DNA of 58,604 nucleotides, from the IMG/VR virus record IMGVR_UViG_3300047557_000735, positions 1 to 58,604 of that record, one strand, 5' to 3'. The position numbers were made by a program, and so were the translations under genes. The DNA comes from a virus. Its lineage: Duplodnaviria; Caudoviricetes. Positions within the stretch are counted from its first letter, which is position 1. Each line of letters starts with the position of its first letter. Positions 3,208 to 30,674 of this stretch are shown here, piece after piece. The notes beneath the pieces are model-generated. The model was not told where the DNA came from. It ran no database searches and worked only from the letters and a program-made list of their open reading frames with translations.

Positions 3208-5115
3208 ATGCCACTACAGAAATTACAATTTCGCCCCGGCGTAAACCGCGAAGGCACAACGCTTGCCAACGAGGGCGGCTGGTATGACTGCGACAAGATT
3301 CGGTTCCGCTCTGGCTATCCTGAGAAGATCGGCGGCTGGGCTGCGCTGTCGTACAACACCTTCCTTGGTGTGTGCCGCTCCATGTGGAATTGGGTAACAC
3401 TTAAAAGCTATAACCTGCTGGGTGTTGGTACGAACCTGAAGTTCTATGTTGAAGACGGCGGTGACTATTACGACATCACCCCCCTGCGGGAGATAAACGG
3501 CAACACGCCCTCTGCTGGGCCGCCCGTAGTTAACGCTTCTACGATTAGCCTTACAGCCAGCGGTACAACAATGACGGTATCTGACAGTTCCGCAGATAGT
3601 TTGCAGGCTAATGATTTTGTGACCATCGCAGGTGCCGGTACGATTGGCGGCGTGAACGTTAATGGTGAGTATCAGATTGTTGAAGTTCTCACAGGCACCA
3701 CTTATACAGTGACGTTGGCTACGGCAACGACAGGATCTAACTCTGCGGCGACAATTACGATTGCCTACCAGATCAATACAGGTTTTCCTATTTACACCAT
3801 CGGTACAGGCTGGGGCACGGGACCTTGGTCTCGCGGTACTTGGGGGTCAGGCTTTACAACCGGCTTTGGTTTGCAGTTGCGCCTTTGGAGTCAGTCTAAC
3901 TTTGGTGAAGACTTGCTGTTCTCACCACGCGGTGGCGCACTATATCTGTGGCAACCGGGCAGCGGTGCTACTCCTGCGTTTGGAACACGAGGTACTTTGG
4001 TTTCTGGTCTGGATGTCCCGTCTCAGATTAACCAGATCATGGTGTCAGATACATCACGAATTGTGATTGCGTTTGGTTGTAATGACTACGGCGCTTACGG
4101 CACAACTACTCAAGACCCGCTGCTTATTCGTTGGTCTGAACAAGAGAGCTACACAAACTGGACCCCAGCGGCGACAAACCAAGCGGGCAGCTACCGCCTC
4201 TCACACGGCTCAGAAATTGTGGGCGCGATGCAGACTCGTCAAGAAATCGTTGTGTGGACGGACGCTGCTATTTACTCGATGCAGTATCTTGGACCGCCGT
4301 TTGTTTATGGCTTCACACTTCTCGCCGACAACATCTCCATCGTCTCCCCCAACGCTATGGCAACTGCTGCTGGTGTGGTGTACTGGATGGGTGTTGATAA
4401 GTTCTACATCTACTCTGGTCGCGTGGAGACGCTCCCATGCTCGGTGCGTCAGTTCATCTTCAACGACATTAACCGTGACCAAGAAGCGCAGTTTAACGCT
4501 GGCACCAACGAGGGCTACTCAGAAGTCTGGTGGAATTATTGTTCCAAGAACTCGACTGTCGTAGACCGCTACGTCATCTTTAATTATCTGGATCGGGTGT
4601 GGTACTACGGCACCCTAGACCGTACGGCTTGGCTGGACTCGCCGCTGCGTCAGTTTCCTATGGGGGCAACGGCTGGCAATATCATTGTGTACCACGAAGC
4701 GGCGGTGGACGATGGTAGTACGAACCCACCAAGCGCAATCAACGCGTACATACAGTCGTCAGACTTTGATATTGGTGACGGGCACAACTACGGATTTGTC
4801 TGGCGTATCTTGCCGGATATTACGTTTGATGGTTCTGACACCACAGGCGCGACAAGCGATAAACCATTTGTTGCTTTCACCGTACGTCCACGTCAAAACC
4901 CGGGTTCATCTTATGGTGTGGCGGCATCACCAAACGTTACCTCGGCGCAAAGCTATGCCGGGCAGACCACCTACAACGTGCAGCAGTTTACAGAGATTGT
5001 GTATAGCCGAGTGCGTGGCAGACAGATGGCGTTCAAAGTAGCGTCTAATAGTATTGGCACACAGTGGCAGTTGGGCGTACCCCGTATCGATGTTCGTCCG
5101 GACGGTAGGAACTAA
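3208..5115 (+). CDS. Tail stabilisation/nozzle protein (podovirus tail tubular B / P22 gp10-like)
   Basis: 635 aa beta-rich protein with IRWS.QE...W and VYWMG...FY.YSG.V..LPC motifs. It precedes the internal virion genes. Confidence 0.7.
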   Translation: MPLQKLQFRPGVNREGTTLANEGGWYDCDKIRFRSGYPEKIGGWAALSYNTFLGVCRSMWNWVTLKSYNLLGVGTNLKFYVEDGGDYYDITPLREINGNTPSAGPPVVNASTISLTASGTTMTVSDSSADSLQANDFVTIAGAGTIGGVNVNGEYQIVEVLTGTTYTVTLATATTGSNSAATITIAYQINTGFPIYTIGTGWGTGPWSRGTWGSGFTTGFGLQLRLWSQSNFGEDLLFSPRGGALYLWQPGSGATPAFGTRGTLVSGLDVPSQINQIMVSDTSRIVIAFGCNDYGAYGTTTQDPLLIRWSEQESYTNWTPAATNQAGSYRLSHGSEIVGAMQTRQEIVVWTDAAIYSMQYLGPPFVYGFTLLADNISIVSPNAMATAAGVVYWMGVDKFYIYSGRVETLPCSVRQFIFNDINRDQEAQFNAGTNEGYSEVWWNYCSKNSTVVDRYVIFNYLDRVWYYGTLDRTAWLDSPLRQFPMGATAGNIIVYHEAAVDDGSTNPPSAINAYIQSSDFDIGDGHNYGFVWRILPDITFDGSDTTGATSDKPFVAFTVRPRQNPGSSYGVAASPNVTSAQSYAGQTTYNVQQFTEIVYSRVRGRQMAFKVASNSIGTQWQLGVPRIDVRPDGRN

Positions 5116-12326: not shown

Positions 12327-15300
12327 ATGGCTGCACCAGCACCATGGGAAATGGATTGGTCCAAGAAGAAGGATGAAGATCGTCCGCCTTGGGAGCGCAA
12401 TTATGGCGCACCACCAGTTCCAACAAAGGCTCCTACCGCCCCCACTACGCTGCGTGACATAGGTGTGTCGGGTGCATCCGGATTTGTTGGTGCCACGAAA
12501 GCACTGACAGATGTGTTTGGTGCGGACAATGCTGCCAGCCAAGCTTTGGGCCAAGCTTCTACCAGCCTGCAAGAGATGTACACGCCTGAGCGTCGGCGCG
12601 AGATAGAGTACTACCAAGCAAAACAGCAAGAAGCTGCCAAGCGTGGCGACATTACTGGTGAGGTTGGTGCTGCGTTTGAGGGGATCAAAGCTGCGCCATT
12701 GCAGGGCACTGTGCAGGCGATTGGCTCACTGGTTCCTAACTTGGCTACGCTGCTCATCCCCGGTGCTGGTGAGGCTCGTGCGCTTCAGCTATCACGCGGC
12801 GCTATCAATACGGCTATCGGTATCATGCAAGGTACTGGTGCTGTCAAAGGTGCTATATACGAAGGCGTCAAGCAGGAGTTGATACAGAACGGTATGGACG
12901 AAGCTTCTGCTGCTCGTAAAGCGGAAGAAGCCCAACGGTATCTGGGGAAGAATGCTGACCAGATCTTGGCTGGTGCTGTAATTGGTTACGGCGCTGGTAG
13001 GCTTGGTGCAGAACAATTCCTCACCCCCGGCTCTCGTGCTGCCACGCGCAAGTTGGCAACGATTGGCACAGAGATGGGCACAGAGGCCATACAGGGCGGG
13101 CAAGAGCAACTGGCACAGAACATAGCCCTACAACGTCAGGGATTCAACGTTCCTACATTCCAAGGTGTGGCTGGTGCTGCAACACAGGAAGGTATTCTGG
13201 GTGCGCTGGGTGCTGGTCCAGTATCGCTTATCAGTGGTCGTCCGTCGCAGAAGGATGTGCCGGGGGCTCAGCCAGTAACTGATGCACAGGTGCCTTTACT
13301 ACTTGAAGGTAAGGGTGCGTTCGTGCCGGTGGGTCTGCCGGATGGTTCTGTAGCTATGACTCGCCAAGATCTGGCTAAGTACGAAGAAGAAAAGTTTAAA
13401 CAGAAGTATGCGCCGCAAGATATCGAGGGAAGAACTACAGTAGCTGCGCCGCCAGCCACACGCGCTATGCCAACTGAGTCTGGCCTAAGCTACGGCACGG
13501 CTACACAAGAGATAGAGTTGCTCAAGCGTCAACCACGCACGCCTGAGACAGACGCTCGCATCAAAGAACTCCAGCAGTACAAGATGGAGACTTTGACGGA
13601 TCAAATTAACGCATCAAAGCTTCCAGTCAGTCCTGAGTTAAAAGCGCTTCGTGAACAAATGGAACGTGGTGATATGACCTATGAGGGTCAGCAGCGCGTT
13701 ATAGACCAGATGCTTGCGGAGTTCTACTCGAGTCGCAAGGGATTTAAGGGCATAGAAAAAGAAGGCGTACCAAAAACTGAGGAAGAGCAAGAGCTTGCCG
13801 ACCTTAATGGATATGCCAGAGATTTATCAAAGGAATACAAATCTGTTACTGCAAAGAAGCTCAACACCGAACTTAAGCGGGCGCTGGCTGGCAAGCTGTT
13901 CCCCGAAGAGGTAGTCAGCGAGATTGGCGTTGAAAGAGAATATAAGTACTTGGCTGCACCCAAGGGTGTAAGGGGCAAGTTAATTGCCGACTTGGTACAC
14001 GACGGTATTCTGGATGAGTTTCTGCCTCCCAACATGCGTGCAGAGTCAGCTGGATTTGATGGGCAAGAGTCAGAGGAGTACATCAAAGATCTGCTGAGGA
14101 CAGAGCAATTCCGTCCATATGACGCACAAGTCCAAGCTCGGATACTGGGCGACAAATTGGGTGAGATTGATGCTCGCATTAAAGAGCTAACAGAATTACC
14201 TAAGCGCATGGCTGGCTTGTCACCAGAAGAGGTGCAAGCAGAGACAGATCGCCTTGCCCGTGAAGCTGGCTATCTGGGGCAGCCACGCGGTGAAGAAGTA
14301 TTGCAGCCTATAGAAGAGCCTGCCGCACAGCCGGTGGAGGATGAGTACTACCCGGACATGGGTCAGGCAGGTCTTGAGGCTGAGACTACGCCTGCGGTGG
14401 AAGAGTTTAAGGCTGCGGATCAAGCGTTCCAGCTTTCGCTCCAGCAGTACGAGGCGTTGACCCAGCAACTCAACAGTGTCCCACAAGGTGTACCCGGGAG
14501 AGAGGCTCTGGAGCAGCAGGTGGTGGAGGCTGAGCAGGTTGCTGTAGATAACCAGCAGAACCGTCAGGCTGCGTTTAATGCACTTAATGCTCGCGAGATC
14601 CAGCAGCTTCAGATGCCTGCGATGGGTGCTGCAACTCAGGAACAGGCTGCCCCAACTTTTGGTGTCCCTGCTGCGCAACAGGCTGCTCCCGGTGCTCCTC
14701 AACAACTGGGTGTACCACAGCGTGGTACCGCACTATCTGCGGCAGAGACTGACATCATAGAAGGCCAAGCGCGGGAAGTACGTGAGCCCGGCGCACCTGC
14801 TGGTATTGATGGACGTAAGCCCGGCACTGCTGTGTCCGCCAGAGAGACCGACATCATCGAAGGTCAGGCACGCGTCATCGATGAGGAGACTATTGCTCCT
14901 GTTGTGGCGCAACTTTCAGCACCAGAACAGCAGACACTGGCAGAGCATTATGGTGAGGAGGTAAACAGTCCCGGGTTCCTAGCCAAGGTACGTGAAGATA
15001 TTGTTAACTTCACTACCAAGGGTGCCCAGTCTGTTGCCGCGGCTATCCGTAATATCATCCGCAAGTTGCAGGCAGCGATACTGTCTGCTGCTGTCATCCT
15101 AAATCCCAACTACATCGGCCCCGGCTATCAGGTAGCTATCCCGCAGAACGTCACCACGGTTGAGCAGGTGCTGGCAAAGGTGCCAGAATCTGTGCGGGCA
15201 AGGATGTCCCCCGGTGCGCAGCAAGCGTATGCCAACATCATGCCTGCAATTCAGGCGGAGCTTCAGAAGAGCAACAAGCTATTTGTCCTGACCGACAAGC

Positions 15301-18300
15301 CCAACGCTCGGGTGTTTGTATTTGACTCCAACGGACAGCCCATCCTTGATAAGAAGGTGCTGCTGGGCTTGCAGACTGGGGACTACTACAAGGGTGATAC
15401 AGAAATCAAAGCCAATCGGTTTACGCCTGCTGGCCTGTTCACCATGGGGTTGCGTGATGCAAAGCGTGGCATTACTGAGACGGGCGGGAACGAAACCAAA
15501 ACCGCTGGAGATTATGACTTCGGTAAGGTGTTTGTGCTGGAGAAGGCAGCGCCTGATGGATCGTATTCCATCACCCTGTTCCATTCTGTCTACACCAAAA
15601 TGTCGGACGCACAAGCCCGGCAGAGAGCGCTGGCTAAGGACAGCGCAGAGGACTCACGCTATTCGTTCGGCTGCATCAACGTAGACAAAGAAACGTACAA
15701 GTTCCTGCTGGATAACTATGAGCAGCAGATGGATGGCGCAAAGTTGTTTATCGTGCCTGACAATCCAGACGCAACCATGGACTTTGTCCGTGGTAAAGCT
15801 GTGACTGCCGGTGACCTTCGCCGCCAAGCTGCTCCAGAGGTAACAAAAGAAGTTACCAAGACTGTACCCGGCACACCGTCTACTACGACTCCACGTACGG
15901 AGATGGCTGCCCGCAAGGAAGAGGATCAGGAAACAAGGGAGCGCGGCAAGTACATGCAGGCTAAGCCCGGTGAGAAGGGCATGTCCAAGGCTGCTGTGGA
16001 CAAGGCTGTGGATGGCATCAAATCTACGTGGAAGAACGCGCCTGACATCGAGGTAGTCCAGTCTTTAAGCGGGCTACCGCAAGAGCTACAGGATCAGGCT
16101 AAAGAAGACAAGGTCAACCCACGCGGGGTCTACGATCCAAATACGAAGAAGGTGTGGCTGGTTGCGGACAATATTCCTAATGACGCACAGGCTGCTATCA
16201 CCCTAGCACACGAAGCACTGGGTCACTTCGGCCTGCGTGTGGTGCTGGGTGCCAACTTCAAGCCGATGATGAACCAGATCTATGAGGGCAACAAGAATGT
16301 GCGTGACCGCGCAGATGCCTACATGGAAGAAGGTGTTGACAGAGAGACGGCTGTCGAGGAAGTGCTGTCTGAGATGGCGCAGGAGGTGTATGACACCCGC
16401 GTACCAGAGAGCAAGCTGAAGCCTACTCGCACCGCTTTACAAAAGGTAATGAATGCAGTCCGTCAGTTCTTGGCTCGTCTTGGTGTGCCCATTAAGACCA
16501 TTGATGATGCTGCTGTGCTGGCCCTTATTGCCAACGCCCGTCGTTCTGTGGTTCGCGGCGAAGGTGTTGCTGGTGAGATGGCTGGTGGCAAACCTTTGTA
16601 CAGCGCCAAGGAACGTATCGAGCGTGTAGCTCAGCGTATGAGCAGCAAGCGCCCTGAGATGGAGCGTGATGCGTTTAGCGACGTTGATGAGGGATTAGTT
16701 AACCGCCTGAAGGATGTCTTCTTCCCTGAGAACAAGACCATTGTTGACCGTATCAATGGCATGCGGGATAACTTCTGGAAGAAGCTTGCTCAAGGTGTGG
16801 CTGACCAGTACCGCTCCATCAAGGACTATACGGAAGAAGGCTACATGCTAGCCCGTATGTCCAAGACTATTGACGGTGCTCTCGAAGGTCTGCTGTTTAA
16901 CGGACAGGTAGCACTGACTGACGGCGCACTAGACATCAAGCAGAACACCAAGGGACTTGTACAAGTCATGGAGCCTGTGGGTAAAGAGGTTGACCGCTTC
17001 CAGATTTGGATGGCGCTCAATCGTGATGCCCAGCTTGTACGTCAGGGAAAGATCCCGTCTGTCGATCCCAAGCTTGTAGAGCGTGCCGGTGAGTTGGCTA
17101 ACGGCAAGATTGGTGGCAAATCTCGACTGGAAGTTTATGAGCAGGTTCGTAAAGATCTGAACGCGCTCAATCGTTCGGTGCTGGATATCGCAAGAAAGCA
17201 GGGGCTGATTGATGAAGAAGCCTACCAAGTGTTTGCCAACGACATCAACTACATCCCGTTCTACAAGGCTATGGAGGATGGTGATATACAAGGTGCTGCC
17301 ACCGCTTCCGGTCTGGCGCGTCAGGAGTTTTCGAAACAACTGAAGGGTGGAGAGAAGCCATTCGCTGACCTGATGGAAAATACCCTGCGCAACTGGAGCC
17401 ACATCCTGTCTGCGTCCATGAAGAACAAAGCGGCGAACGTCACGCTTGATGCTGCTATGGATATGGGTGCTGCCTACCCGAACTTGAAGGTTGGCTTCGA
17501 GTGGCGTGATGGCAAGGTCTACTCCGCCAAGTCGGGCGAGATGGTAGGCGACGGCAAGCTGAAGGCTGAATACACCACGCAGAAGGCTGGCATGGTTAAG
17601 ACCATGATCAACGGTAAGCCTGCGTACTTCGAGGTGGTAGACCCGCTGCTGCTGGATTCTATTAGCTCTATCGGCTACATGGGTCCGAAGTCTAAGTTCC
17701 TTGATGTGGCTAAAGACTTCAAGAACCTGCTCCAGTTTGGTGTCACCCTGTCTCCAGCGTTCAAGGTACGCAACCTGTTCCGTGATTCCATCTCAGCTAT
17801 GGCGGTGTCTGACCTCAAGCTCAGCCCGGTATCCAACGTGATCCGTGGATGGAATGCATCACGGGGAGATAATCCTGCACACATCTCAGCACTGGCTGGT
17901 GGTGCGATCTTTAACTTTGGTTCCTACTATGAGGGTGACCAGAGCCGTTTGATCAAGCGTCTGCTGAAGCAGGGCGTGAACCCAGACTCGATTCTGGATA
18001 CAGATGAGAAGATCAAGAAGGGTCTTACTGCTGCGTGGCGCAAGTATCAGGAGTGGGGCAACAAGTCTGAATCTGCTAACCGTATGGCGCTGTATCAGCA
18101 GATGCGTGACCGCGGCATGTCCCACCTCGAGGCATCGTTCTACGCACGGGATCTACTGGACTTCTCCATGCAAGGATCGTGGCCTGCCTTCCGTCTGGTA
18201 GCACAGGTAGTGCCGTTCCTGAATGCCCGCGTGCAGGGTCTGTACAAGCTAGGCCGGGATGGCGTGATACCTACCAGCCGGGTGATCTACAACACGGTGA

Positions 18301-19313
18301 CAGGCAAGCCCGTAGAGTTGACTGACAAGCAAAAGGCTCAGCAGTTCGGTACGGTGACAAGCGCAGTAGTGCTGGCATCGATGGCCTTGTACTTGATGTT
18401 CAAAGATGACGATGAGTTCCAGAAGCGTGAGGCATGGGACCGGGATAATTTCTGGTGGTTCAAGCTGCCCGGCATGGATGAGGCTCTGCGTGTACCTAAG
18501 CCATTCGAGATTGGCGCATTTGGTACCATGTCGGAGCGGGTGCTCGAGCAGATCGTTGATCAGGGCGCAGAGGGCAAGCAGTTTGAAGAAAGCTTCCGTC
18601 GCATGCTGGGAGATACGTTTGCTTTGAACCCAGTGCCACAGGTATTCAAGCCGCTGCTGGATCTGTACTCCAACAAGGATAGCTTTACCGGTGCGCCTAT
18701 TGAGACGGCTGGCATGGAGCGTCTATCCAAGCAGGAGCGGGCATCTGATACCACCAGCCCGTTGGCAAAGGCACTGGGCGGCGTCTCCAATATCTTTGCA
18801 TCTGTTGCTGGGGAGAAGACGGAACTGTCGCCTGCTCAAATTGACTATGCCATCAAGGCTTACCTTGGCTGGCTGGGTGGCACCATCACAGCGTCATCGC
18901 ACTATGCGGTCATGCCGTTCTCTAAGAGCGCATACCCTGACCATAACTGGACAGAGACTATGTCGCTGGGCTTTGTGAAGTCACTGCCCGCCACGCAGAG
19001 CCGGTACGTCACGGAGTTCTACCAGAACAGTAAGCAGATCTCTCAGGCTTATGCAGACATGCGCCACTATGCAGAGCTTGGTCAAGCAGAGAAGGTGGAT
19101 GAGATTCTTGCTGAGAAGGGTAATGAGATTGCGCTTGCAAAGTCTTACGACAAGGCTGCCAAGGATATGGCTAAGGTTCGTCAGGCCATCTCGTTTATTC
19201 GTAACGATGAGAACATGTCCGGGTCTGAGAAGAAAGAAGAGATTGACCGCCTGAAACTGCTGATCGATGAGATCGCCAAGCAGATGGAGACCGTGCGCAA
19301 AGAGCTAAAGTGA
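12327..19313 (+). CDS. Large polyvalent ejection protein with L,D-transpeptidase-like, zincin-like and LPD38-like regions
   Basis: 2328 aa. H(15582)...SFGC(15672)INV; HEALGH at 16209-16226; C-terminal RDNFWWF...RVPKPFEIG. Confidence 0.8.
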   Translation: MAAPAPWEMDWSKKKDEDRPPWERNYGAPPVPTKAPTAPTTLRDIGVSGASGFVGATKALTDVFGADNAASQALGQASTSLQEMYTPERRREIEYYQAKQQEAAKRGDITGEVGAAFEGIKAAPLQGTVQAIGSLVPNLATLLIPGAGEARALQLSRGAINTAIGIMQGTGAVKGAIYEGVKQELIQNGMDEASAARKAEEAQRYLGKNADQILAGAVIGYGAGRLGAEQFLTPGSRAATRKLATIGTEMGTEAIQGGQEQLAQNIALQRQGFNVPTFQGVAGAATQEGILGALGAGPVSLISGRPSQKDVPGAQPVTDAQVPLLLEGKGAFVPVGLPDGSVAMTRQDLAKYEEEKFKQKYAPQDIEGRTTVAAPPATRAMPTESGLSYGTATQEIELLKRQPRTPETDARIKELQQYKMETLTDQINASKLPVSPELKALREQMERGDMTYEGQQRVIDQMLAEFYSSRKGFKGIEKEGVPKTEEEQELADLNGYARDLSKEYKSVTAKKLNTELKRALAGKLFPEEVVSEIGVEREYKYLAAPKGVRGKLIADLVHDGILDEFLPPNMRAESAGFDGQESEEYIKDLLRTEQFRPYDAQVQARILGDKLGEIDARIKELTELPKRMAGLSPEEVQAETDRLAREAGYLGQPRGEEVLQPIEEPAAQPVEDEYYPDMGQAGLEAETTPAVEEFKAADQAFQLSLQQYEALTQQLNSVPQGVPGREALEQQVVEAEQVAVDNQQNRQAAFNALNAREIQQLQMPAMGAATQEQAAPTFGVPAAQQAAPGAPQQLGVPQRGTALSAAETDIIEGQAREVREPGAPAGIDGRKPGTAVSARETDIIEGQARVIDEETIAPVVAQLSAPEQQTLAEHYGEEVNSPGFLAKVREDIVNFTTKGAQSVAAAIRNIIRKLQAAILSAAVILNPNYIGPGYQVAIPQNVTTVEQVLAKVPESVRARMSPGAQQAYANIMPAIQAELQKSNKLFVLTDKPNARVFVFDSNGQPILDKKVLLGLQTGDYYKGDTEIKANRFTPAGLFTMGLRDAKRGITETGGNETKTAGDYDFGKVFVLEKAAPDGSYSITLFHSVYTKMSDAQARQRALAKDSAEDSRYSFGCINVDKETYKFLLDNYEQQMDGAKLFIVPDNPDATMDFVRGKAVTAGDLRRQAAPEVTKEVTKTVPGTPSTTTPRTEMAARKEEDQETRERGKYMQAKPGEKGMSKAAVDKAVDGIKSTWKNAPDIEVVQSLSGLPQELQDQAKEDKVNPRGVYDPNTKKVWLVADNIPNDAQAAITLAHEALGHFGLRVVLGANFKPMMNQIYEGNKNVRDRADAYMEEGVDRETAVEEVLSEMAQEVYDTRVPESKLKPTRTALQKVMNAVRQFLARLGVPIKTIDDAAVLALIANARRSVVRGEGVAGEMAGGKPLYSAKERIERVAQRMSSKRPEMERDAFSDVDEGLVNRLKDVFFPENKTIVDRINGMRDNFWKKLAQGVADQYRSIKDYTEEGYMLARMSKTIDGALEGLLFNGQVALTDGALDIKQNTKGLVQVMEPVGKEVDRFQIWMALNRDAQLVRQGKIPSVDPKLVERAGELANGKIGGKSRLEVYEQVRKDLNALNRSVLDIARKQGLIDEEAYQVFANDINYIPFYKAMEDGDIQGAATASGLARQEFSKQLKGGEKPFADLMENTLRNWSHILSASMKNKAANVTLDAAMDMGAAYPNLKVGFEWRDGKVYSAKSGEMVGDGKLKAEYTTQKAGMVKTMINGKPAYFEVVDPLLLDSISSIGYMGPKSKFLDVAKDFKNLLQFGVTLSPAFKVRNLFRDSISAMAVSDLKLSPVSNVIRGWNASRGDNPAHISALAGGAIFNFGSYYEGDQSRLIKRLLKQGVNPDSILDTDEKIKKGLTAAWRKYQEWGNKSESANRMALYQQMRDRGMSHLEASFYARDLLDFSMQGSWPAFRLVAQVVPFLNARVQGLYKLGRDGVIPTSRVIYNTVTGKPVELTDKQKAQQFGTVTSAVVLASMALYLMFKDDDEFQKREAWDRDNFWWFKLPGMDEALRVPKPFEIGAFGTMSERVLEQIVDQGAEGKQFEESFRRMLGDTFALNPVPQVFKPLLDLYSNKDSFTGAPIETAGMERLSKQERASDTTSPLAKALGGVSNIFASVAGEKTELSPAQIDYAIKAYLGWLGGTITASSHYAVMPFSKSAYPDHNWTETMSLGFVKSLPATQSRYVTEFYQNSKQISQAYADMRHYAELGQAEKVDEILAEKGNEIALAKSYDKAAKDMAKVRQAISFIRNDENMSGSEKKEEIDRLKLLIDEIAKQMETVRKELK

Positions 19314-29196: not shown

Positions 29197-29220
29197 AGCG
29201 TCCTCCCTCACAATATCTGC

Positions 29221-29249
29221 ATGCTATTACAACAGGTAGGTAGTGTCAA
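29221..29249 (-). promoter_or_regulatory. Leftward sigma70-type promoter
   Basis: Minus strand: TTGACA (29249-29244), 17 nt, TAGCAT (29226-29221). Confidence 0.75.
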
Positions 29250-29287
29250 TAGGTATATTCAAGGGGGAACAATCTGTTGCATTAAGG

Positions 29288-29311
29288 CTATCTGGTAATT
29301 CTTCCAGATAG
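29288..29311. promoter_or_regulatory. Palindromic operator, copy 1
   Basis: CTATCTGGTAATTCTTCCAGATAG, nearly identical to 39236-39259. It lies just upstream of an extended -10 TGcTATTCT (29315-29323). Confidence 0.75.
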
Positions 29312-29328
29312 GTATGCTATTCTTGGGG

Positions 29329-29397
29329 CGAGGAAAGCGGATGCTGGAGACTGCACCTCCAAAGCGGTCATTGCTTGCCAGATGTAGCGAGTACTCG
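29329..29397 (+). ncRNA. Putative structured RNA with loop-E/sarcin-ricin-like GAA/AGUA motif
   Basis: CGAG-GAAA-GC...GC-GAGTA-CTCG enclosing TGG/CCA and a GGAG/CTCC hairpin. Confidence 0.45.
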
Positions 29398-29551
29398 GTG
29401 ATTGCAACGTTGTTGTGTTCATACCCCAGCCGCAGGTGGGCAAACGGCGGCGACAGGAGTCTGGTAATCCTTTAAGCTGTAGCGTAACTGGATGATCCTG
29501 TGGACACCCCGGAGAGACGGGGAGAGTCTTCTTGCCGGTGGTGAATGCCGG

Positions 29552-29596
29552 GAGCCCCTCCGCTCTCCCCCTCCTTCGAGACGGGGGGCTTTTTTT
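29552..29596 (+). terminator. Probable intrinsic terminator
   Basis: GCCCCTCCG...CGGGGGGC followed by T7. Confidence 0.55.
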
Positions 29597-29624
29597 ACAC
29601 GCAATATGTCGTTCCTGTTATAGT
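29594..29624 (+). promoter_or_regulatory. Promoter for the tRNA/ncRNA array
   Basis: Extended -10 TGtTATAGT (29616-29624) about 10 nt before the tRNA, with TTTACA upstream. Confidence 0.6.
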
Positions 29625-29633
29625 CTCATCAGA

Positions 29634-29708
29634 TGCGGGATGGCGCAGCGGTAGCGCGGTGGGCTCATATTCCATAGGTCGTCGGTTCGATTCCGGCTCC
29701 CGCTACCA
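29634..29708 (+). tRNA. tRNA(CAU), initiator (fMet)-like, with encoded CCA
   Basis: Cloverleaf TGCGGGA-TG-GCGC-AGCGGTA-GCGC-G-GTGGG-CTCATAT-TCCAT-AGGTC-GTCGG-TTCGATT-CCGGC-TCCCGCT-ACCA. It has a 1:72 mismatch and G29-G31 as in initiators. Confidence 0.92.
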
Positions 29709-29831
29709 AGACGCATGACCATTGCTGGACGTGAAAACGTAAAGCGGACTAACCCAGAAGCGGGAAGCCCCGAGTTCTAGACACCTCGGTGGTAGCAAGA
29801 CGGGGAAATAGCAGTGGTCAGTCGTGTTGGT
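29705..29831 (+). ncRNA. Structured RNA module A1
   Basis: ACCAAGACGCATGACCATTGCT pairs with AGCAGTGGTCAGTCGTGTTGGT. Internal hairpins are ACGT-GAAA-ACGT and CCGAG/CTCGG. Confidence 0.7.
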
Positions 29832-29893
29832 GTCAGTGAATAGCTGGCAGTGGCATATCGCACACGGGCAATAGGGAATAGCTGTCACCAACA

Positions 29894-30012
29894 ACCAAGA
29901 CGCATGAGGATTGGCTTATTACTGGAAAGTCCGGACTAAAGGTAATGAGATCAGCGGAGTGTCCTTAGTGACTAGGCGGGCTCGTAAGGCCGCAGTCCTC
30001 AGTCGTGTTGGT
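29894..30012 (+). ncRNA. Structured RNA module A2 (paralogue of A1)
   Basis: ACCAAGACGCATGAGGATTG pairs with CAGTCCTCAGTCGTGTTGGT, with a compensatory CC/GG to GG/CC swap relative to A1. Confidence 0.7.
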
Positions 30013-30111
30013 GAATGCGTAGGCTGATACGCGGCGAGCCGGAGCTAATGCAGGAAACGACGGACACCAAGGCTGACCTGAATATGCCGGAGATCAGCGC
30101 CGGTCACCAAC
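30007..30111 (+). ncRNA. tRNA-shaped RNA module B2 with complementary loops
   Basis: Closing stem GTTGGTGA/TCACCAAC, arm GCGTA-GGCTGA-TACGC, arm CCGG-AGATCAGCG-CCGG. GCTGAT and ATCAGC are complementary. Confidence 0.6.
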
Positions 30112-30137
30112 CTCCACTAAAGTCCAGTAACGTCCAG

Positions 30138-30166
30138 TTGCACGGAATCTCATACTGTCTTATCAT
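30138..30166 (+). promoter_or_regulatory. Rightward sigma70-type promoter
   Basis: TTGCAC, 17 nt, TATCAT. Confidence 0.65.
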
Positions 30167-30212
30167 TCGTCCTGTCAGAGCTGGCACTCTGTCATATACG
30201 CTAATGAGTACT

Positions 30213-30350
30213 AACCCCAGTCAGTTTAGGTGGGGCATGTGTAGTTCAGTTATATCTTCCTTCTCACGAGGGGAAAATCCATTAGCGTGGATATGACTGA
30301 GTTGCCCATGCCAACGGGCCATGCCCCACCTAAGTTGTACTGGGGTTTTT
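30213..30350 (+). repeat. Long imperfect inverted repeat followed by a U-tract
   Basis: AACCCCAGT.CAG.TTTAGGTGGGGCATG ... CATGCCCCACCTAAG.TTG.TACTGGGGTTTTT. Confidence 0.85.
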
Positions 30351-30674
30351 CTTTGGGCGCTCTGACCGCACCTACCGCGATAGCAGAGAGCCTGCATGGG
30401 CTGCCGTAGAGAGTACACTGGCCGAGGATTCACCCCCCTGCGAGCCACGTAGCCTGTCAGCGAGGGACTACACAAGACGGTGGGGACAAGTGGTGAGACA
30501 ACCCTGCCATCGAGATAATCGCTGCCTCACGGGTTTGCTGGGCGCCAGTAGCAGGGCGTTGGGCAGGGAGATACCACCGCCTCTGTGCCTACGGCATGGG
30601 TAAAGGCTGGGCTATCACCCTTGGGGAACCTAGACACGGGTATGCAATAGGTAGGATGAGACCAGAACTACCTG

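Follow-up and report, generated by a model that had tools for sequence, protein, structure and literature searches.

An initiator-like tRNA with an altered 38/39 junction in an aquatic tailed phage: possible escape from a host factor

Introduction

Why should a bacteriophage carry a tRNA of the type that starts translation, and why should this tRNA differ from cellular initiators on both sides of a bond that is known to be cut by a toxin? All protein synthesis has to begin through the initiator tRNA alone, and this molecule is the target of known toxins that cut or block it. VapC cleaves tRNAfMet between A38 and C39, as stated in a passage of PMC4105405 that cites Winther and Gerdes 2011, and VapC toxins are described in part of PMC7180214 as recognising both sequence and structure. 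According to an excerpt of PMC4611024, Cm32·A38 stacks on G31-C39 in the initiator loop. Phage tRNAs have been proposed to evade anticodon nucleases, and the same source states, in its relevant section, that phages generally avoid encoding tRNA-fMet (PMC10264068); no fMet tRNA was found in Shigella phage Sf14, as far as the excerpted account in PMC12482277 goes.

The tRNA considered here was the subject of an earlier note, made from the DNA letters alone, which described it as a nuclease-resistant replacement initiator, altered exactly at the site cut by enteric VapC toxins. The two published facts on which that reading drew, the VapC cut at 38/39 and the proposed evasion of anticodon nucleases by phage tRNAs, agree with the passages of PMC4105405 and PMC10264068, respectively. 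The questions that follow are whether the tRNA is an initiator, whether it is maintained, how unusual its 38/39 state is, and what that state may mean.

Results

The phage and its single tRNA gene

The window, i.e., the whole stretch of 58,604 bp that was analysed, corresponds to an entire IMG/VR virus record with an estimated completeness of 92%. It belongs to a tailed phage, as it encodes a large terminase, portal, capsid, SU10-type adaptor proteins and a tail fibre; the early region holds genes for an ERF recombinase, an exonuclease, an SPFH protein, a ParB-like protein, a helicase and a primase, together with many ORFs lacking a family match. A separate curiosity of this genome is an ORF of 2,328 aa (12327-19313, + strand), matched over its C-terminal third only and solely by PHROGs of unknown function (phrog_18222, E 9e-168). 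Among the 37 distinct ORFs scanned against PHROGs or Pfam, neither an integrase nor a PIN, HEPN or other RNase family was found; the idea that the tRNA serves as an integration site was rejected on the former result.

Sequencing runs holding the phage are labelled freshwater, marine, aquatic, drinking-water and wastewater metagenome, and its closest phage isolates come from a lake and from marine environments. The phage is thus aquatic, and the enteric VapC named in the earlier note is therefore not the relevant enemy. No RNA run is present among the listed runs that hold the phage. Megablast of the locus against 50,697 phage records returned no match; a distant search mode returned 7 records only, each matching the tRNA alone.

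ARAGORN finds exactly one tRNA in the 58,604-bp window, a tRNA-Met (CAT) at 29634-29708 on the + strand, in agreement with the statement of the earlier note that it is the only one. Rfam RF00005 covers 29634-29705 at full length (1-71) with 59.6 bits against a gathering score of 29 (E 2e-10). Rfam reports nothing besides this tRNA in the whole window, and nothing else credible at E<=5 on 29200-30500. The gene and its principal parts are as follows.

29634-29708, + strand: tRNA gene, 75 nt, anticodon CAU, predicted initiator-type, CCA encoded (ARAGORN; Rfam RF00005; 74/75 identity to the relative L314)
29634-29704, + strand: acceptor stem, with U1xU72 (29634/29704), G2:C71, C3:G70, G4-G6:C67-C69 and A7:U66
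29659-29675, + strand: anticodon arm, positions 27-43, with stem 29659-29663/29671-29675 and loop 29664-29670 (read from the sequence)

The 1:72 opposition is the sole non-standard pair flagged in the cmscan alignment, and the D stem contains C11:G24. The anticodon stem is formed by G27·U43, U28:A42, G29:C41, G30:C40 and G31·U39; it encloses the loop CUCAUAU, i.e., C32 U33 C34 A35 U36 A37 U38, so that U38 is nucleotide 29670 and U39 nucleotide 29671. A73 and an encoded CCA complete the 3' end (29705-29708). All bases named in the earlier note (the arm, U38, U39, the G31:U39 wobble, U1:U72 and C11:G24) were read correctly. The cloverleaf has a computed energy of -26.7 kcal/mol against -26.8 for the minimum free energy (MFE) fold, which itself is not a cloverleaf; the cloverleaf is therefore accessible, though not the unique optimum. 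The isolated anticodon arm, with its two G·U pairs and one A-U pair, is weak (-1.2 kcal/mol).

Initiator-type identity

In a blastn search against 5,426 complete E. coli genomes, the tRNA matched a median of 4 places per genome at about 82% identity. At the E-value limit of 10, few or no other tRNA genes were matched, and elongator Met or Ile2 genes were not among the usual matches. The one top match inspected, in strain H2, lies within three tandem tRNA-Met genes between mltA and amiC, which we take to be metZWV. The nearest sequences among the tRNAs collected are nonetheless virus-borne initiator-like ones, L259 (65/73) and L092 (63/75), against 62/75 for the E. coli initiator copy.

Anticodon CAU and discriminator A73, the identity determinants for MetRS, are both present. 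For formylation, the section of PMC4611024 dealing with determinants ranks the lack of a Watson-Crick pair at 1:72 as primary and A11:U24 as secondary. The phage tRNA has the primary one, in the form of the U1xU72 mismatch, and lacks the secondary one, with C11:G24 in its place. The block 29-31:39-41 reads GC/GC/GU, with the essential G30:C40 kept; the canonical loop CUCAUAA with C32·A38 is absent, its place being taken by CUCAUAU. The 1:72 mismatch, G2:C71 and C3:G70, G29-31, A73 and the E. coli matches uphold the earlier assignment of the tRNA as initiator-like, and not elongator Met or Ile2, at the level of sequence features. Taken together, these features indicate that the phage probably encodes a functional initiator-type tRNA.

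Conservation and distribution

The most informative relative is a metagenome contig (L314) that is syntenic with the window, has flanking segments 72-94% identical and carries the tRNA at the same place. Here 74 of 75 tRNA positions are identical, against 157 of 196 over the 200 nt upstream. For a divergence of 20%, at most one change in the tRNA would be expected with a probability of about 1e-6, and for one of 10% with 3e-3. The only substitution, G64>A (29696), replaces U50·G64 by U50-A64. The tRNA, as judged from this comparison, is under purifying selection. The tRNA is also present on contigs from runs of three other studies, within longer pieces that show 0-2 differences; in run X9, near-identity spans 345 nt including the first of the downstream units described below, and part of the "conservation" is therefore recent module sharing.

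The wider distribution is patchy. The helicase led to 80 related loci, of which 43 (hand count) include at least 3.2 kb upstream of the helicase gene, and none of these 43 carries the window tRNA. The absence points to a sporadic acquisition, dispensable for the clade. Where the window has the tRNA, its closest relative, L002 (helicase 91%), carries another and shorter sequence. Two of the 43 relatives carry other tRNAs: L043 has Tyr and Leu tRNAs, and L047 a different CAU tRNA. The latter (L047, 2211-2285), which occupies the equivalent region, is itself initiator-like, with C1xA72, C11:G24, a CUCAUAC loop and no more than two G:C pairs in the G-first orientation. It was apparently acquired independently, as a CAU tRNA with a nucleotide other than A at position 38.

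Organisation of the locus

The tRNA sits in the gap between the leftward and the rightward early gene blocks, flanked by the following elements.

29572-29596, + strand: terminator-like hairpin with T-run, just upstream of the promoter (sequence scan)
29616-29624, + strand: extended -10-like element (TG-n-TATAGT), putative early promoter, ending 10 nt before tRNA position 1 (read from the sequence)
29705-30116, + strand: two direct units of about 181-189 nt 3' of the tRNA (repeats D1 and D2), strain-variable

The TTCCTG..TATA(A/G/C)T promoter block is conserved in L011, L039 and L314; a consensus promoter scanner missed the element at 29616-29624 because it has no good -35. The hairpin at 29572-29596 may insulate the tRNA transcription unit from upstream transcription on the + strand, and the tRNA would then be the first element of the rightward early transcript, given the promoter predicted here. 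The contigs aligned to the locus represent strain variants and hold no transcript ends.

The first downstream unit starts with the tRNA's own ACCA. Each unit contains a GTGTTGGTG...CACCAACA stem, the first of which folds with z -2.25. In a contig of run X4 one unit is missing (joint 29817>29999, a 181-nt skip), and in L314 the whole 29722-30117 stretch is absent, so that no downstream units remain. In the contig of run X9, an insert of 132 letters separates the -10 element from the tRNA (window 29624/29631); its upstream part differs by 5-6%, the tRNA and first unit (345 nt) by 1 letter, which makes it a mosaic with a junction at the 5' edge of the tRNA.

Further small RNAs may be encoded around this site. 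The segment 29243-29596 (+ strand), conserved with L002 (74%) and L314 and ending in the terminator-like hairpin before the tRNA promoter, may be one of them; within it, a TCTGGTAAT(T/C)CTT motif occurs twice, at 29291 and 29460. In L011 (~651-740) and L039 (~4661-4780), both without the tRNA, a structured RNA of 76-108 nt follows immediately after this early promoter. Its central helix differs between the two by compensatory changes, and it may be a clade-specific early small RNA. The corresponding region of the window has no Rfam match; a hammerhead-like reading of the L011/L039 RNA was discarded on this ground and on the misfit of the core.

How unusual the 38/39 state is

The arm was searched as a pattern (G29-31, CUCAUA, U38, U39, C40-41, two free bases, AGGUC) that fixes parts of the arm and of the variable region. 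With U38 and U39 together, one genome for each of 185,579 species yielded 5 stretches, of which 1 is a tRNA, located in a 13-tRNA cluster on a Halorubrum contig; no bacterial tRNA was among them. Mimicry of a host arm was discarded as an explanation on this result. For two of the four non-tRNA matches, the genome has a canonical arm elsewhere. The Halorubrum cluster (L089, 4124-6981), which includes a CAU tRNA with a GGG/CUCAUAU/UCC arm, U1:A72 and no encoded CCA, resembles a tRNA array of viral origin within the genome of an archaeon.

Besides the window, IMG/VR yielded 3 stretches, 2 of them tRNAs (L082 and L083, with C1xC72 and A11:U24), and metagenome contigs 13 stretches with 9 tRNAs, namely L314, three copies of the L082 type and five further distinct ones, three of which lie in tRNA arrays. 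Across viruses, metagenomes and Halorubrum, the U38+U39 state thus occurs in at least 8 distinct tRNAs (window/L314, L082-type, L089, L305, L307, L309, L311 and L315).

All 102 of 102 viral stretches with U38 followed by C39 are tRNAs, 72 of them distinct, and the bacterial C1xA72 was present in only 5 of 71 parsed. Among the viral matches listed (116 arms), positions 38/39 read AC in 99, UC in 11, AU in 5 and CC in 1. Replacement of A38 among these listed matches is directional, with U in 11, C in 1 and G in 0. With the loop left free, position 38 was the most variable one in the C32/U33 class (12/96, among the matches listed). Other positions vary as well: the 95 distinct viral initiator-like tRNAs show 12 combinations at 1:72, with U1xU72 in 10 and CxA in 25, and C:G at 11:24 in 22.

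On the cellular side, a sample of one bacterial phylum had the arm in 243 of 301 genomes, and 149 of 149 readable arms besides the centre's own read AACCC; U38 was absent from all 259 arms in the 300 non-centre genomes. The difference between 11 of 116 viral arms (among the matches listed) and 0 of 259 bacterial ones corresponds to a Fisher P of 1.8e-6, with a cellular baseline made up of this one phylum and E. coli and with viral contigs that are not phylogenetically independent. In E. coli, C39>U was seen in one copy in 1 of 5,426 complete genomes. That copy is the third tandem initiator gene of strain H2 (L303, 500-576; NZ_CP010163.1), giving G31·U39, and may be a real variant or a sequencing error.

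The data support a virus-specific 38/39 state of the phage tRNA, relative to a cellular U38 baseline of one phylum and E. coli. With about 0.10 x 0.04 of ~1,000 arms, a total that is extrapolated, ~4 joint occurrences are expected and 3 viral contigs were seen, which is compatible with independent occurrence of U38 and U39. The claim that the tRNA is altered exactly at the cleavage site stands in part. It does differ from cellular initiators at both 38 and 39, one nucleotide on each side of the VapC cut; U38, on the other hand, is shared with L259 and the 72 distinct viral tRNAs. It was apparently inherited from a viral tRNA lineage rather than tailored. Only C39>U, a structure-keeping transition, seems to have been added on top of it, and a "tailored double change" would be an overstatement.

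Discussion

Our tentative overall reading, held at somewhat short of even confidence, is that the phage encodes a functional, virus-adapted initiator tRNA whose 38/39 junction is altered to escape a host factor. Transcribed first in the early region, this tRNA would be supplied by the phage from the first minutes of infection. Host MetRS would charge it, and the formyltransferase would be expected to accept it because of the 1:72 mismatch, perhaps less well than a canonical initiator because C11:G24 replaces A11:U24; it would then enter the P site. G31·U39 appears compatible with initiation by analogy with known variants: according to the excerpt of PMC5389676, some bacteria naturally have a GC/GC/gu initiator, and the mutants failing to sustain E. 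coli do not include "3rd GU". U38 and G31·U39 would take the place of C32·A38 on G31-C39, the two layers by which the initiator loop is closed and which flank the bond cut by VapC. A host factor that reads this junction, be it a VapC-like or another anticodon stem-loop RNase of the aquatic host, might no longer recognise the phage copy, and initiation could continue through it when host tRNAfMet is cut.

That the 38/39 state itself was selected for such escape is a narrower claim, and a more doubtful one. The case for selection is built on the virus-specific and directional occurrence of U38, on purifying selection and on the position at the start of the early transcript; given these sequence patterns, a host factor recognising the canonical junction would be the most economical explanation. 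A38 and C39 also belong to the initiator-specific loop conformation, and their change might therefore weaken initiation rather than protect it. In the literature searched, no effect of 38/39 changes on VapC was found, and Winther and Gerdes 2011 or Walling and Butler 2018 might contain such data.

The strongest rival, nearly as likely as the escape reading and, like it, unlikely when taken singly, is that the phage initiator simply tops up early initiation, that U38 is the single tolerated alternative at a site of weaker constraint in a short-lived viral supplement and that C39>U is a near-neutral, pair-keeping transition, the 38/39 state having no defensive meaning. Viral initiator-like tRNAs vary at other supposedly invariant positions, as the 12 combinations at 1:72 (CxA in 25/95) and the C:G at 11:24 in 22/95 illustrate, and this looseness is explained equally well by escape and by constraints that are relaxed or of another kind. 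GC/GC/gu is not listed with the initiator mutants failing to sustain E. coli in the excerpt of PMC5389676, the joint frequency of U38 and U39 fits independence (with the total of arms extrapolated), and most relatives do without the tRNA altogether. What speaks against neutrality is, above all, the distribution of U38 itself, which is found in about 10% of the viral arms listed but in 0 of 259 arms from 300 bacterial genomes, nor in the aligned E. coli H2 copy. Its direction is equally hard to square with drift: A>G transitions should be the commonest mutation, and the replacements counted are U in 11, C in 1 and G in 0 among the matches listed. Moreover, the present sequence of the tRNA appears to be under strong purifying selection.

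A role in elongation, either as tRNA-Met or as tRNA-Ile2 after lysidine formation at C34, is improbable. It would account for C11:G24, which is an elongator-type Y11:R24 pair, and for U38 and the weak anticodon stem, which are unlike those of initiators; the ARAGORN label reads merely "Met". However, elongator tRNA-Met has a paired 1:72, needed for EF-Tu, and no G29-G31 run, and the phage tRNA has U1xU72, which disfavours EF-Tu binding, together with G29-G31 and an initiator-like acceptor stem. The determinants of tRNA-Ile2 for TilS and IleRS are C4:G69, C5:G68, C29:G41 and U12:A23, and all of them differ in the phage tRNA (G4:C69, G5:C68, G29:C41 and G12:C23). The E. coli search, in addition, yielded few or no tRNA genes other than those taken to be initiators.

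Equally improbable is an attacker of viral origin, i.e., that the phage itself or a helper element destroys the host initiator tRNA as a means of shut-off and supplies a resistant replacement. A tRNA placed first in the early transcript and a wealth of early ORFs without family match would suit such a strategy, and degradation of the host translation machinery with replacement by phage tRNAs is discussed for other phages in a section of PMC12482277. The 37 distinct ORFs scanned nevertheless include no PIN, HEPN or other RNase family, and relatives without the tRNA share most of the early genes.

Least probable of all is that the tRNA is unused in translation and represents a decaying captured gene, an RNase P/Z processing signal or a recombination site: the stretch is indeed rearranged between strains (unit duplication, the 181-nt skip, the 132-nt insert, unit loss in L314), the same slot in relatives holds a different small structured RNA and the MFE fold is not a cloverleaf, but 74/75 conservation with a pair-preserving change, a full-length covariance model match at 59.6 bits, an intact CCA, A73 and anticodon, and the lack of an integrase among the 37 ORFs scanned all argue otherwise.

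Returning to escape from a host factor, it is intriguing to extend the reading from this tRNA to virus-encoded initiator tRNAs in general. They may form a class with its own signature, consisting of U38, sometimes G31·U39, and non-bacterial 1:72 pairs, all essentially absent from cellular initiators, that serves as counter-defence against widespread and largely uncharted targeting of the tRNAfMet junction by VapC-like PIN or other RNases in environmental bacteria. The tRNA of the window, altered to either side of the scissile bond and heading the early transcript, would then be a dedicated counter-defence initiator. On the sequence patterns at hand this broader proposition is speculative, and we regard it as less likely than escape in the single case.

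Whichever reading holds, the part most worth pursuing is the occurrence of U38 in about one in ten virus-borne initiator-like tRNAs (among the matches listed), a state absent from the cellular samples searched. Viral contigs carry many initiator-like tRNAs, at variance with the general avoidance stated in the passage of PMC10264068, and in the present phage a U38/U39 double variant appears to be kept under purifying selection at the head of an early transcript. If the variant is nuclease-resistant, the arms race over tRNAs extends to translation initiation, and the sequence at the junction provides an easy marker by which tRNAfMet-directed defences can be found; a neutral variant would still help to map which "invariant" initiator positions can change in nature.

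Comparison with known systems

With bacterial tRNAfMet (E. coli metZWV/metY) the phage tRNA shares CAU, A73, the unpaired 1:72, G2:C71, C3:G70, G4-G6:C67-C69, G29-G31 and the AGGUC variable region. It departs from it in having U1xU72 instead of C1xA72, C11:G24 instead of A11:U24, U38 instead of A38 and G31·U39 instead of G31:C39, as well as a D loop two bases shorter. The GC/GC/gu initiators of some mycoplasmas and alpha-proteobacteria, and the "3rd GU" variant of E. coli, resemble it in a third pair that is G·U with the purine:pyrimidine order kept, whereas the phage tRNA is phage-borne and additionally has U38; the former apparently keep A38, judging from the excerpt of PMC5389676.

Phage initiator tRNAs with an altered anticodon stem-loop were not found described in the literature, and supplements such as that of PMC10264068 may list some. 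The closest functional parallel is provided by phage tRNAs that escape tRNA-cutting defences, as proposed or shown in passages of PMC10264068 and PMC11555353, which are phage-borne copies of host tRNA species with an anticodon stem-loop that differs from the host type beside a known cleavage site, as that of the present tRNA differs from cellular initiators. Those tRNAs are elongators, as far as these passages go, whereas the tRNA of the window is of initiator type and a candidate for such escape. Its closest structural parallels are the two virus-borne tRNAs from IMG/VR. L092 shares the whole acceptor stem including U1xU72 and differs in its canonical A38/C39 and A11:U24, whereas L259 shares U1xU72, C11:G24 and U38 with the tRNA of the window and differs from it in C39.
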